Made by a program: the position numbers and the translations under genes. This document shows, one piece after another, positions 3,356 through 19,200 of a stretch of DNA of 64,000 nucleotides. Source of the stretch: Candidatus Omnitrophota bacterium (GTDB taxonomy: Bacteria > Omnitrophota > Omnitrophia > Omnitrophales > Aquincolibacteriaceae). The notes beneath the pieces are model-generated. The model searched no databases and was not told where the DNA came from. It saw only the letters and a list, made by a program, of their open reading frames with translations. The stretch covers positions 1 through 64,000 of the forward strand of contig JAZDJU010000098.1 in assembly GCA_043803685.1 (NCBI GenBank), given 5' to 3'. How positions within the stretch are numbered: position 1 is the stretch's first letter; every line of letters starts with the position of its first letter.

Positions 3356-6300
3356 ATGTATCTACGTAGGCCGTTCAGGATGCTCGTCGCTATTTGTACG
3401 AGTGTCACTTTTTTAGCCACGAGTGTTGGCGTGTCTCCAGGAGCTTTTGCCGCTCCCGCCATGCCGGAGGTCTCTCTTCCTTACCAGGCCGCGATCGATC
3501 GGGATCTGAGGCTTGCCATTCCTCATGAACTTGGCAAGCTGGAGCAATACCATGCGGGGGCAGGGGATCAGCCGGTTGTTTTCCACATCCAGACCGCGCA
3601 CGGTCATTACGAAGCTCAGCAGCAAGTCCGCAAGATCCTCCACTATCTTGACAAGCAGTACGGAGTAAGAACGGTCCTCGTTGAAGGTAGCGCTTTCCAG
3701 CTTGATCCAAAACTCTTGAACTTTTTCCCAAAAGATGCAGCCCTGACGCAGAAGGTTAACGAGGAGTTGACGAAGCGCGCTCTCGTGAAAGGTCCGGAGC
3801 TTTATTTGCTCGATAAACTTCAGGAGGGCGGAGGGCGGAAGGCGGAGGGCGCAAAACAACAGGACATTGGAGGGCGGATAGCGGAAGGCGGAAAAGCGAA
3901 AACGCCATCCACCATCCTCCATCCGTTCCACGAGCCTGCCGTGCAGGCGCTTGGTATTGAAAGCCTCGAGGCCTACCGAGAGAACGGGCTTGCCTTTGTA
4001 AATGTCCTGGATCAGAAAGAGAAAACGGCCAAGTTTCTTGCTGATATGGATATGCAGATCGACCGCCTCGCGGGCCGGTTCCTCAACAAAGACCTTCGTG
4101 ATTTCTTGAGGCGTGTCGAAGGTTTCGAAGCGAACAAGGTTCCACTTGATATCTGGCTCCAGGATCTGAAAAAGGAAGCGCAAAAGAGGCTCGAGATCGA
4201 TCTCGCTTCGCCCGCGCAGCAACTCGACTGGCCCATGATGGTGCGCTTTTTCAAGATGCAGGAGCTTGCAGCGAAATTCGACAACCGGAAGTTTCCGGAG
4301 GAACGGAAAAACTTCCTGAATGCTTTGCGCCGCTTTCTTCCGGATGGCGAAAAACCAGAAACGCCATCCACCATCCACCATCCTATTTCGCTTTATGGCA
4401 ACATCGAACGTTTTCTCACTTCCGAAGAGATGAGCCGCGATCTTCCGGATCCCGAGACGGAACAGCTCTTTGAAGACATGGTGAAGCAGCTTCCCGAAAA
4501 TTTTAATTATGATGCTTTTCCCAACGTGCGCTTTTATATCGGAACCCTCCTCCTTCAAAGCGAACTCAAGGCCGACCGTCTGTTCTCCGAAACGAAGGCC
4601 CTTTCTGCTGTGATCTCGGGGAAGTTGACTCGTAATCAAGGGGAGAAGCAACTGGTCGCGCTACTCGCGGACCACCGGTTGTTGCAGAAACTTTTTGCAT
4701 TGCAGCTCATGCCTGAGGATTATGAAGCAATTGTCGGAGGGCGGAAGGCGGAGGGCGGAGGGAGCTTAAAGCCCTCAGAGATCGTAAAGCGTTTTGAAAA
4801 CGCCATCCTCCATCCGTCATCTCCGCCACAAATCGTTGGACGGATCCGTCCTTCGGCGGACTCCATCCGGAAGGTTAGATCCGTTCAGTTCTCCCACATC
4901 GAGGAACTCGACGCTCTTTTTGAAAAGGCGATGAAGTTCTACGCGGGCGTCAAAGAACGTGACGGCGCGATGGAGCAGAGGATCGAGGAGCGCCTTCGCG
5001 AGACCGGCGCGAGCAAAGTCGCGGTCATTACCGGTGGTTTTCACTCCCGGCCGTTCGCGGATTATTTTTCTTCCAAAAATCACACCTATGCTTTGATCTC
5101 GCCCAAATTGAATTCTTCAGATGATGCCGGGCATGCGGCGTATGAACAAAATATGATTCGTTTTTCGGGGAACGGGGAACGGGGAACGGGAGAAGCGCTA
5201 TCGTGGAACGTGGAACGTGGAGCGTGGAGCGCAAAAGACGCGACTCGCGAATTCGAATTTCTGTCCGACCCCAAAGTGCTCGCGGGAGCTTATGCGATCA
5301 ATGCCGCCGTCATGCGCTCCGAAGTCCGGAACGTTATTCAGGCGGTCGCCGGGTCCGCGGCTCTTGAGGTCATCAGCAGCCTTACCGAAACGCACTCAAA
5401 TCTGGTTGGTCCCAGTACTTCTCGGCCGACGTCAGAGGAGATCCGTCGTTCCGAGGCGCGGGATCTGGCTCCTTTCATAGCCATGCCCGAATTCTTCAGG
5501 CTGGCGGTGAAAGCATCTGCTCATGGGGCTTTCTCTCTGTTAGCTCAAATAGCCAAGGACTTTGCTGGAAGTATTTATCGTTCTATGCATGGTTTTTTTG
5601 TGGTGAAGGCAAGATCTTCCAAGCCGGTTGTCCGCAGGATTGCCGCCGAAGTATTAAATGTGATGAAACAGCCAGACAGCCGTTCTAATGCGCCGGAGAG
5701 TTTTTTGTTGACGATGGGGAAGACCTATAAAGCGCGAAGCTTCAACGGATTTTGGGAGCTTGCGGAGGAAGTGGCGGCGGACCCGGGGCAGTTTGTCCGG
5801 GATCGTGCGATCTTCGGTTTGATCCATGGTTTTTTTGCGATAACAGCCACCGCTAACAACGCAGATGTCCAAAGCGCTTCGGATAAAGTATTGGCCTTGT
5901 TGAGAGAGGCTTCCGCGGAGAGTTCCTCTCAGCCGACGTCAGAGGAGATCCGTCGTTCCGAGATGCGCTTGGATCCGGATGAGCAAAGCGTTTCGCCGGA
6001 GCCAGTGAAAGGGGGAGTTCGTCGAGTCGGGATGCTGGAGTTTCCTCCTCCAAAAACGGTCGAGGGAATTTTTAAATGGGCTAAGGATGGGGATCGTGAG
6101 GCGCTAGTGATCCTTGCGCTCATAGCGAAACATTACAGTGGCAGCATCACGCCTGATATGAAGCAGTATTTTGTGGTGGCAACTTCAGCCACTGAAAAGA
6201 AAGCTCGCAATATTTTCAGGCAGTCGTTAAAAGCGCTAGGCATGTCGCGGAAGAATGACACGGTGACGGATGATTTTTTACAGCTCGTAGGGAAGATCTT

Positions 6301-16286: not shown

Positions 16287-19200
16287 ATGAATTTCCGTTC
16301 ATTAAGAATAGCGTCGGGCTTGGTGTGTTTTATTTTCCTGGTGACGAGTATCAATCCTGTCGCCAACGCCATGACGCCTGCTACCGAAGTGTCTCCGATG
16401 CCGTTCAAGACGCTCGAGATCCCGGCCGAGTTCGGCCAGGTGACGGAAACGATCACGGGGGATGCGAAGGCTCCGGTCCTCATTCATATCCAGTCGGCCC
16501 ACGGTAGTTACGAGGCTGAAAAAAATATCGAGAACCTTCTCGGCTACATCGAAAAGAATTCCAAGATCCGGACGATGTTCCTTGAAGGCGCCGCGAACAA
16601 GCTCCAGCCCGAACTCTTCCGCATTTTCCCCGATCATCCCGACTTCAATCGTCAGGTTACCGACAAGCTTATGCAGGAAGGGTATTTGACGGGGCCGGAG
16701 CGTTTTCTCATTGAAAATGCGAGCCAAGGGACACGGGCCAAGGGCCACAAAAATACGGGCCAAGAGCTACGAGCCAAGGGACACGAATCGTGGAACGCTC
16801 TCGGAATGGAAGACCTCGACGCTTACAAAAAAGATCGCGACGCGTTCATCAAAGTCGTGAAGGCTGACAAGGCCACCCAGACTTTCCTCAGACAGCTTCG
16901 CGCGGACCTTGAAAAGCGTTTCACGGCGACACTCAACAAGGACCTCCTCAATCTCGTTCGCCAGGAAGATTCACTCGATGCCGGGATGCTGTCCTTTGAA
17001 GGCTGGCTCAAGTCTCTCGGCGAAGCTAGCCAGAAACATCTGAAGCAAGATCTCTCCGACGCTTTCTATCAGAACCACTATCCTTTCCTCGTCCGCTATT
17101 TCCGTCTCCGCTCAATCGGGACCAAGATCGATCAAGAGAAGGCGATGAAGGAATCGGATGATTTTCTGAAAGAACTGGAAAAGCGTAAGATCGACAAGAA
17201 TATCGTTGATAGTTTTCGAGCCACGAGCCAAGAGCCACGAGCTACGGAAAAAGATCGAGCCACGAGCCAAGACTCCAGAGTCACAAATCCTGCAGGGCAA
17301 AACGTGGCACGTGGCACGTGGAGCGTGGATCGTGCTGCAAGCGGCTATTCGCCGCTCCGTCGCGCATTCGATCTTTTGTTCAGCAAGCTTCCCAAGGATT
17401 TTTCCATGAAGGCGTGGCCGAACTGGACGCTTTATGCCCAGTACATGATCCTGATGCAGGAGATGGAAAGCAAAGGGCTTCATGAGGAGACTACGCAGCT
17501 CAAGAGCAAGATCCAGAATAGTCTGGCAAAAACCGCGGAAGAGAAAGAATATCTCGCCCAGGCGCGGCATCTTTCCCTGCTCCGAAAGCTCTTTTCGCTC
17601 GAACTGACGAGGAGGGAGTATGAAGAGGTGAATAATCGTGCCACGTACCACGAACCACGCACCACGAATTCCGTGGACCATGGCCCATGGCTCGTGGCTC
17701 CTGCGGCGCAAACTTTGTTTGCGACCGCAATGTCTTTCTACGACACTGCCGTTCTCCGCGAACAAAAGATGTTCACAAACGCCCTGAAAAAAATGGACGA
17801 CGCCAAAGAACAGCGTGCCATCCTCGTGACCGGTGGTTTCCACGCCGAAGGCATCAAGAAGCTCGCCTCTGAAAAGAATTGCTCCTATCTCCAGATCACC
17901 CCGCGCATCCAGGAAGTCACCCAGCGCGATCATGAAATGTATCTCAGGTCCATGCTGGGGACTCGCGAATTCGAGACCTCCCAGATCGTGGCGGCGCTTG
18001 CCCTTATGAGCAGCGCCCAGCGTATCGCCGTGGCCGGACGTGAAAAGACCAGGGAATGGCTGACTTCCATCGGCGATACGATCCGTGAGATGATCAGCGT
18101 CCAGCTTTTATCGCTCCAGCCCGCGTACGTGAATGCTTATGCTGTATCTTCGCTAGGCCGCGCCGAAGTCCGCACTACCTCATCCCGCTCTGAGACAAGA
18201 CTGGAACCGACGCAGGCCATGGTTCGGGAAACACTGAAGCAGGCGGAGCAGGGACAGTTGTCTGGAGATGAAGCCGTGGTAAAAGGCGCTGCGACTGCCC
18301 TAGGCGCATTGTTCGGTCAAACACGGCCATCGGTCGCGCGTTTATCTACTATCTACAGTCCTTCATTCGGAACTGTCACGAAGATCGTGACAAAGAATCT
18401 CGAATCAAAACAGCAAACTCCGAAAGCGTTGGAGGGTTTTGATGTTGTCATGACGCTTAAAGAAGGCGGTTCGACGATTACTGCCGCCAGTATAAAAGAA
18501 GCGGATGAGGTGTTGGCGCAACAGGGGAAAACCACCCTGGATCTCTCCAAGATCGAATTTGTCCACCGCTCGGAAATGAGGCTGCTGGCCAACAATGATC
18601 GTGAGCTGGGAAGAATCATAGAACAATCCGTTCCGGGCAGCATTTGGGATGGCTCCAAGATCGGACGGGCACTCGGACTTCTCTTGTCTCCTGATCATTT
18701 GGGCGCACTCGCAGTGGTTCACCGGCAGGTGCAGCTTGCCAAAGCCAAAGCGTTGCCGCCCGTGGTGAAGAAAGCGCCTATCCACACGTATCGCGGCCAG
18801 CACCGCGTCGCAAAGACTCCGTCGGTAAGACGTGATTCGTCTGCCAAAAGCCGCTCCGAAGTACGGGAACAGGTGACGATCTCTATTTCCGATAAAGCCC
18901 TTCGCACCGGAAAGGCGCAAGCTGTTGTTCAGGGGATTACCATTCGACTTGGAGGTAGTTACAGTAGCGAGTCACCAGTAGCAGCAGATTTGTTCGCAAA
19001 AATGGCGAAGGGCTTCACAAACGACATTCTTAGTATTTCCGCCTATTTCGAAGGATCCGGTGTGACGGAAGCGGGTCCCGTCTGGCTTGGTAAGGACAAA
19101 GCGACGCAGATCCCCGGAACGAATAAGTGGGTCAAATTGATCTCCGGGAAAGTGGGGGGGGCTGTCACGATCGAACTCGAATCCCGCTCGGAAGCGCGGG

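Follow-up and report, generated by a model that had tools for sequence, protein, structure and literature searches.

An undescribed TIKI-fold head family of Omnitrophota giant proteins, a candidate leader-guided processing peptidase

Do the giant proteins of Omnitrophota act whole or in pieces? This open question is raised by a 64,000-nucleotide (nt) stretch of contig JAZDJU010000098.1, the window from here on, which starts with three giant open reading frames (ORFs) in tandem (Table 1; amino acid (aa) numbers are counted within each giant). Passages of two preprints describe such giants as signal-peptide-bearing multi-enzyme proteins (bioRxiv 10.1101/2023.11.21.568195; bioRxiv 10.64898/2026.06.07.730766). 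In those of the first, West-Roberts et al. 2023, self-cleavage by C39 or S8 peptidase domains is proposed, the cleavage points being unknown, and the N-terminal regions are said to be generally without identifiable domains (bioRxiv 10.1101/2023.11.21.568195). Giants 2 and 3 of the window begin with a signal peptide and a head domain, and are punctuated by five-residue RSExR marks, the delimiters. A preliminary description of this DNA had placed the head in the TraB/Tiki/EreA/ChaN superfamily, in which Tiki proteins are metalloproteases, and had proposed that it may be the enzyme that cleaves these delimiters.

The head family is a real, large and undescribed family with, on model evidence, a TIKI fold, and it is tied to the maturation of giant proteins. 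The head probably works like a processing peptidase. In the reading that we prefer, with a probability of roughly 0.45, it is an exported, metal-independent, leader-guided processing peptidase that acts in cis or in trans, and the RSExR delimiters are more likely read by another enzyme. The passages of either giant-protein preprint that were searched do not mention Tiki, a ChaN-type domain, a leader or delimiters, and the supplements may list the domain. Our literature search returned no paper pairing Omnitrophota with polyprotein and none describing the head domain.

Fold and catalytic residues of the head

The N-terminal regions of giants 2 and 3, about 650 aa in each, are 26% identical over 693 columns (E 1e-65), with a head of ~520–550 aa. 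The preliminary description had the two giants homologous at this head apart from delimiters and linkers, and BLAST agrees, at head coordinates near those claimed. The sole further match is a 41-aa stretch of delimiter and linker (aa 1284-1324 of giant 2, aa 3811-3851 of giant 3). All of the motifs named at that time were found in giants 2 and 3, respectively: HIQ[T/S]AH at nt 3584 and 16485, [V/L]EG at 3680 and 16581, G[I/M]E at 3953 and 16803, R[D/E]xxM at 4958 and 17757, and TGGFH at 5030 and 17829.

An AlphaFold2 model of the giant 3 head, built from 96 sequences, has a predicted local distance difference test score (pLDDT) of 82 and a predicted template modelling score of 0.79, and shows a six-strand core split by a helical insertion of ~300 aa. 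In a wide structural search of 48,161 chains the top five matches of this model are all TIKI members (Z 8.3-9.1, root-mean-square deviation (rmsd) 3.4-5.8 Å, 157-179 residues aligned): HopBA1 (Z 9.1, rmsd 3.4 Å, 157 aligned), EreC (8.8, 4.2 Å, 168), BcR136 (8.6), ChaN (8.4) and BcR135 (8.3). The best unrelated protein has a Z of 7.0, and RRSP is absent among the 50 matches listed. Foldseek on the full giant 3 model returned nothing at E <= 0.001 (BcR135 E 0.49, ChaN E 2.4). Compact heads of ~220 aa that have no helical insertion, with D or E-D before the His, occur in one family (f26; loci L173-L175 and L180-L183). A model of such a head (pLDDT 86.5) places the same five TIKI proteins first (Z 8.9-10.2, rmsd 3.2-4.8 Å, 150-189 aligned), e.g. 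ChaN (Z 10.2, rmsd 4.8 Å, 177 aligned) and EreC (9.4, 4.6 Å, 189), with PMT at 7.8 and RRSP at 6.7 (4.1 Å, 155); here Foldseek finds ChaN with E 1.2e-3 and a probability of 1.00. In the structural search both models have the parallel beta-sheet core flanked by helices that is expected of TIKI proteins. The Z values are modest, and the case for the fold rests on one superfamily holding the top places twice. The models thus support a TIKI/EreA/ChaN fold for the giant 3 head and, by homology, for that of giant 2.

Comparisons with named families are less generous. The superfamily assignment of the preliminary description stands at the level of modelled fold, and finds no counterpart in the TraB/PrgY/GumN profile (PF01963), which matches no head in 151 genomes, nor any in Pfam scans. 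Pfam and NCBIfam give no match on the head of either giant 2 or giant 3. Solved structures were searched by sequence with two profiles and a single head, and nothing significant emerged. Profile comparisons with a single TraB protein (E 0.18) and a single Ere protein run in register and are not significant. The ChaN profile (PF04187) weakly matches the Arg...GxxH half in 3 of 14 of the genome's own heads, at best with E 2e-4 and under the curated cut-off. Among 21 genomes all 15 of its sub-cut-off matches are heads, and no genome has a match above the cut-off. The Ere profile (PF05139) has one weak head match, 20.1 bits against a cut-off of 26.4. A search for short relatives of the C-terminal half of the head found none. 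By the tests run, the head family is not a member of the TraB, ChaN, Ere or cysteine protease domain (CPD) families.

Across 231 aligned heads, a set biased to high-scoring matches, H72 (giant 3 numbering) is present in 230, the one miss being a truncated protein, and E100, R491, H519, G516 and G517 are each present in all 231. R491 and the His of GxxH thus agree with the conserved basic residue on a helix and the late histidine of the TIKI superfamily, and H72 and E100, the His-Glu pair, sit just after strands in the giant 3 model. His and Glu are 28 residues apart, as are Arg and His. Passages on EreC give the pairs H50/E78 and R261/H289, each 28 apart (PMC7979712), and passages on RRSP give H3902/E3930 (28) and R4001/H4030 (29) (PMC6254334). 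According to the same passages both enzymes are metal-independent; the metal site that the preliminary description had in mind is thus not something that these closest characterised relatives need (PMC6254334, PMC7979712). A further acid, at E175, is Glu in 221 heads and Asp in 10. Position -2 to the His is N in 84, D in 84, T in 25, E in 21 and S in 15 heads, and position -3 is Q in 223. No Cys is found among the columns kept in at least 85% of the 231 heads, and neither Cys nor Ser is available among the conserved columns as an acyl-enzyme nucleophile. There is no dead copy among the 231 heads, so each copy seems to need its active site.

Delimiters, split genes and a leader strand

Fifteen ORFs of this genome carry a head: 13 giants with 4-25 RSExR, one ORF cut by a contig end and one 739-aa protein that has no marks. 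All 12 intact-start ORFs with at least two RSExR begin with the head, and RSExR is absent from the 7 headless giants. The motif is counted 151 times in 69,379 aa against 22 times in 741,807 aa, and 11 of those 22 are in four giants cut at their start. Taken over the best 150 relatives, the mark is present in 99 of the 101 with at least 1,000 aa of cargo, and is missing from 18 of the 142 whose cargo reaches 300 aa. A class of ~1,000-aa proteins (P0061, P0062, P0063 and others) consists of a head, ~450-530 aa and an xAA/xSA end, with no RSExR. The unmarked 739-aa head-plus-tail protein (G000:C114:46201-48420, L012) is divergent from a giant gene and among the most diverged heads; it is a candidate trans-acting reader for this genome.

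None of the 15 R[S/A]ExR marks of giant 2 and none of the 28 of giant 3 lies inside an annotated domain, and the hexokinase module of giant 3 has marks within 11 and 7 aa of its ends. A hydrophobic segment begins directly behind 14 of 160 marks and directly ahead of one of 160, where random positions give 2%. Lipoprotein-type signal peptides stand straight after delimiters in giants 2 and 3, with four more in relatives, which suggests that delimiters mark new N-termini. Given their mixed synonymous codons, the avoidance of domains, the tight hexokinase flanks and the hydrophobic segments behind them, the marks look like processing sites as far as sequence can tell. The idea that RSExR is a DNA recombination site was rejected, as synonymous codons are mixed at 156 sites. 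The first delimiter does not stand directly behind the head, as had been thought: the gap is 50 aa in giant 2 (nt 5315) and 65 aa in giant 3 (nt 18159). The giant 3 head was modelled together with its first two delimiters in cis; their pLDDT of about 30 speaks neither for nor against a contact.

Further afield the head and the mark come apart. The head family counts 9,764 clusters at 50% identity (E <= 0.001) and occurs in 188 of 301 genomes of the phylum, with up to 37 copies per genome. Its matches in the ESM Atlas are only to unnamed Omnitrophota clusters, and relatives are mostly labelled Candidatus Omnitrophota, a minority of 80 loci carrying other group labels. A clear repeated word was found in 4 of 20 distant giants, a different one in each (RFxE, RxSTSG, RT[SA]T and GARL). 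Pooled by genome (n=26), six are clear, four are borderline (KxSSxG twice, GLEE, DGG) and 16 have no word above shuffles, in a survey that read parts of genomes with a test that misses short or rare words. Ten of 11 further head-bearing ORFs have no mark above shuffles, and keep the catalytic residues where aligned. In G150 the word GGxHP occurs in duplicated stretches and was left out of the marks. A YPNC word was noted in G294. In a FastTree phylogeny of 70 heads, which carries long-branch warnings and a partial head (L105) placed by BLAST, the mark tracks the genome rather than the head clade, and one supported clade mixes GARL, RxSTSG, RT[SA]T and no mark. This argues against each head cutting private sites. 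Co-occurrence of head and mark thus holds in this genome and its closest relatives and fails across the phylum, where many head-bearing giants have no repeated mark. The preliminary description had named homologous heads on proteins without a repeated motif as evidence against a self-processing role; such heads are common, both on unmarked giants and as stand-alone genes, which tells in part against that role.

A C39 peptidase, as a possible reader of the marks, was looked for and not found in this 91%-complete genome or in G212; three other genomes do have C39. Three C39 domains are encoded in G235, and one C39 domain (G235:C6:245046) lies within an open frame of 54,392 aa.

Headless giants carry a D-x-L-R leader motif just past the signal peptide, and a similar x-L-A-P strand stands behind fused heads. 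Among 80 loci there are 39 stand-alone heads, 37 fused and 4 unclear. Stand-alone heads are complete genes of ~520-620 aa with a signal peptide, and are often followed downstream by headless, signal-peptide-bearing multi-enzyme genes. At loci L113-L128 they stand beside genes with aldolase, PFK, GPI, PPDK, GlmS, GH94 and UDPGP domains, some of these neighbours being signal-peptide-bearing fusions of normally cytoplasmic enzymes. One headless neighbour of 5,219 aa carries 11 RT[SAG]T marks. Three genomes of one family have a single detected head, a stand-alone one, and hold 85, 61 and 86 [AS]GLEE codon strings (controls 16, 6 and 23); in eight regions fetched, all nine start-intact proteins with at least two [AS]GLEE are headless. 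By eye, L-[RK] follows the signal peptide at once in 8 of these 9, and the strict pattern is found in 4 of 9 against 10 of 90. More generally, D-x-[LV]-[RK] opens 22 of the 29 signal-peptide genes that lie downstream, a pattern seen in 37 of 514 interior windows; L[AS]P stands behind 27 of 37 fused heads, against 7 of 514. Stand-alone heads mostly end before the position of this strand. These patterns, with the ends of the stand-alone heads, suggest that the short strand stays with the cargo when the gene is split. In the lineage of the window the equivalent stretch is degenerate, with the consensus F-D-x-S-Y-L-E-A. At loci L207-L234, DGG lies behind the leader helix, within the stretch read, in 9 of 29 leaders, like a double-glycine leader.

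We modelled a split-gene pair from another genome, the stand-alone head of G235 with the 44-aa leader of its neighbour. The complex scores 0.74 and the best of three controls 0.00; 116 of 157 solved pairs attain the threshold for this score, as do 2 of 215 mismatched ones, a calibration that is approximate here given that we supplied the alignments ourselves. Contacts agree between runs by at least 84%, with a partner pLDDT of at least 69, and no solved structure similar in sequence to the modelled pair was found. In the model the His33 region, Glu61 and residues 422-427 touch the same peptide; the leader Arg contacts the catalytic Glu and the strand before GGFH, the interface takes in both His regions, and the leader helix packs on head residues 72-88. 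The DGG mark lies outside the listed interface. Binding of the leader in the active site of the head is accordingly a prediction of this model.

The function of the head and its alternatives

We hypothesize that the signal peptide exports the head, which would then grip a short leader strand in its active site. In giants 2 and 3 it would do so in cis, and where head and cargo are separate genes it would act in trans. The His-Glu pair would make a water-mediated cut at or beside the leader, the Arg presumably holding the oxyanion as in EreC. For fused giants such as 2 and 3 this cut would free the head from its cargo, the degenerate strands behind their heads then being the same leader.

A number of points weigh against this proposal. 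The Glu that RRSP has two residues before its His is lacking in giants 2 and 3, which read Q-T/S-A-H there, and the acid at E175 may stand in for it. The invariant Arg (Arg399 of the modelled homolog) is absent from the listed contacts of the complex, whose alignments used partner rows chosen by the leader motif, and this model supports binding only, for a pair from another genome. The leader patterns were defined with the sequences already in view, and the 80 loci include some places that had been sampled before. L[AS]P is not found in the strands behind the heads of giants 2 and 3, and the strand behind the head is modelled with a pLDDT of about 50 in giant 3 and 56-67 in the compact head. 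Many headless giants would already start with L-R once signal peptidase has acted, and a further cut at that point would take off little, so the head may bind without cutting. The TIKI fold also houses esterases and non-enzymes.

How far does the evidence reach beyond the leader, to the delimiters themselves? The head might also cut these, RSExR here and GARL, RT[SA]T, RxSTSG, RFxE or GLEE elsewhere, probably through one trans-acting head per genome after docking on the leader; we hold this as a tentative second possibility. Much of the local evidence would suit it: the strict pairing of head and RSExR among intact-start ORFs, unmarked headless giants and marked long-cargo relatives, the concentration of RSExR counts, the [AS]GLEE-rich, headless, leader-bearing proteins of single-head genomes, the lack of a detected C39 peptidase in this genome, an invariant Arg that several marks have in common with the leader, and marks that avoid domains and precede signal-like segments. 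Against it stand the 16 genomes and ten ORFs in which no mark rises above shuffles and catalytic residues are kept where aligned, marks that are chemically unlike one another and follow the genome and not the clade, paralogous heads (median 27% identity) that have a single mark in common, and a DGG mark outside the modelled interface. The earlier suggestion that the head cleaves RSExR keeps the intact catalytic set, the local co-occurrence and a modelled contact with a relative's giant in its favour, and is not supported by the modelled active-site peptide, which is a leader and not a delimiter.

The position of the leader at the extreme N-terminus of many mature headless giants raises another thought, that the head binds it with no simple hydrolysis, as an export gate, a chaperone, or a transpeptidase linking the leader to a surface polymer or lipid. 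That the head is universal and marks are not, the large modelled interface with its helix-binding exosite, and the use of the fold by ChaN, HopBA1 and PMT without this hydrolase activity are all consistent with such a role. It is unlikely in our view, as about 230 heads keep, without variation, the four residues that are catalytic in EreC and RRSP and for which a pure chaperone has no use, and a transpeptidase has no Cys or Ser acyl-enzyme nucleophile among the conserved columns. Still more improbable is that the head is an Ere/BcR135-like esterase of small molecules or carbohydrates, present as a further enzyme of sugar metabolism. EreC and BcR135/136 are indeed among the top fold matches, and stand-alone heads adjoin genes for glycolysis and sugar domains. 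The fixed first position of the head, its up to 37 copies per genome, a leader motif that moves with gene fission and a modelled peptide in the cleft all favour a protein as substrate.

Leader-guided processing thus remains our preferred reading. A bolder and rather doubtful extension is a phylum-wide polyprotein system, in which an exported TIKI peptidase, fused or free, would dock on a leader and cut marks rewritten by each lineage (RSExR, GARL, RT[SA]T, RxSTSG, RFxE, GLEE, DGG, KxSSxG), setting free ready-made enzymes, and pre-proteins that bring signal peptides of their own, perhaps within prey or host cells. There is a puzzle here: the head sits behind a signal peptide, yet kinases, glycogen synthase and internal signal peptides belong in the cytoplasm. 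Such cytoplasmic-type cargo would be in keeping with a multi-pass topology, or with delivery to the inside of prey or host cells.

If the head does cut, it would be a new family of sequence-guided peptidases and a bacterial route to polyprotein processing. With stand-alone heads of ~500 aa, compact heads of ~220 aa, a short leader and five-residue marks, the question becomes tractable with small proteins and peptides and no culturing. The compact heads are the best constructs for biochemistry.

Layout of the window and comparison with known systems

Table 1. Giant proteins of the window and the features of giants 2 and 3
Feature	Position (nt)	Strand	Basis and remarks
Giant 1, C-terminal part	2..3013	+	start outside contig; 5 RSExR marks; C-terminus xAA; head, if any, outside window
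Giant 2 ORF, 4,251 aa	3356..16111	+	signal peptide, TIKI head, 15 R[S/A]ExR marks, PAS-histidine kinase-receiver module, glycogen/starch synthase module, tail ending xSA
Giant 2 signal-peptide-like start, aa 1-32	3356..3451	+	read by eye
Giant 2 TIKI-fold head (predicted), aa 52-604	3509..5167	+	homology; fold taken from models of giant 3 and compact homolog
Giant 2 candidate catalytic residues	H82 (3599), E110 (3683), R535 (4958), H563 (5042)	+	alignment
Giant 2 additional conserved acid	E202 (3959)	+	alignment
Giant 2 candidate tethered leader strand, aa ~632-639	5249..5272	+	by position only; degenerate; putative
Giant 2 first RSExR delimiter, aa 654	5315..5329	+	sequence
Giant 2 delimiter, then lipoprotein-type signal peptide with lipobox, aa 1056-1084	6521..6607	+	sequence
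Giant 2 PAS-histidine kinase-receiver hybrid, complete, between delimiters	7355-11000	+	domain scan
Giant 2 glycogen/starch synthase, between delimiters	13325-14590	+	domain scan
Giant 3 ORF, 5,358 aa	16287..32363	+	signal peptide, TIKI head, 28 R[S/A]ExR marks, hexokinase module, tail ending xSA
Giant 3 signal-peptide-like start, aa 1-28	16287..16370	+	read by eye
Giant 3 TIKI-fold head (predicted), aa 42-560	16410..17966	+	alignment and model
Giant 3 candidate catalytic residues	H72 (16500), E100 (16584), R491 (17757), H519 (17841)	+	alignment
Giant 3 additional acid	E175 (16809)	+	alignment and model; large helical insertion between E175 and R491
Giant 3 candidate tethered leader strand, aa ~561-570	17967..17996	+	by position; low model confidence
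Giant 3 first two delimiters, RAExR aa 625 and RSExR aa 634	18159..18200	+	sequence
Giant 3 lipoprotein-type signal peptide right behind delimiter, aa 1842	~21810-21900	+	by eye
Giant 3 hexokinase module, aa 3295-3806, delimiters at aa 3284 and 3813	26136..27737	+	Pfam

Giants 2 and 3 may also share a tail weakly, as both end in a helix and xSA; a tail profile built without them matches the tail of giant 3 (E 4e-4) and not that of giant 2. A helix with an xAA/xSA C-terminus is found in all 15 complete giants and related ORFs of this genome, where the helix of the giants is amphipathic, against 24 of 1,477 other ORFs, and an xAA/xSA end occurs in 102 of 150 relatives. Such an end is possibly an export or degradation signal. 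Elsewhere in the window, a weak NAGPA (phosphodiester-glycosidase) match lies at 1410-1760 in giant 1, preceded by a hydrophobic segment (E 8e-4, under the cut-off), and a GldA/GldF/GldG-like ABC transporter set follows the giants and tyrS at 33615-37998, probably as unrelated housekeeping context. A run of quinone and folate genes includes, at 57708-58613, a gene whose product weakly matches the CPBP glutamic intramembrane proteases (MrtS-like; E 4e-8, under the cut-off).

Several known systems resemble the head in part. Tiki, TraB, PrgY and GumN proteins (PF01963) have the superfamily and the motif order in common with it, with no profile match. Tiki cuts secreted Wnt proteins at their N-termini. 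Passages of one paper have Tiki proteins acting on the N-termini of secreted proteins (PMC12329661), and in passages of another Tiki/TraB peptidases are suggested for leader cleavage in ribosomally synthesised and post-translationally modified peptides (PMC8939145). EreA/B/C and BcR135/BcR136 (PDB 6XCQ, 2QGM, 2RAD, 3B55; PF05139) are like the heads in fold (Z 8.3-9.4), in the 28-residue spacing of both pairs and in having a helical insertion in the core. They differ in sequence (~10-13% identity, below the Pfam cut-off), and the heads have Gln at the position of EreC E47, a much larger insertion, a signal peptide, fused giant cargo and, by prediction, a protein substrate.

RRSP, the TIKI endopeptidase domain of Vibrio MARTX toxins (PDB 5W6L), has the same His/Glu/Arg/His order and is the only crystallised TIKI peptidase among the structural matches. 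Unlike the proposed head, it is a released effector that cuts host Ras/Rap1, not a processing protease, and giants 2 and 3 do not have its first Glu. The best fold scores of all, with Z up to 10.2, belong to ChaN (PF04187, PDB 2G5G), HopBA1 (5T09) and the C2 domain of PMT (2EBF), which bind haem or have no known hydrolase activity, and whose profile matches fall below the curated cut-off.

The preliminary description had likened the role of the head to that of the MARTX CPD. The CPD is a Cys-His protease fold activated by InsP6. The CPD and the viral polyprotein proteases do resemble the proposed head, as a built-in protease on a multi-module precursor with marks between the modules. The head is unlike the CPD in fold and chemistry, being TIKI-like in the models and without a conserved Cys. 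Nor is it always on the chain with its supposed sites: 39 of the 80 loci hold stand-alone heads, marks are found on headless giants, and heads occur both alone and on giants that carry no marks.

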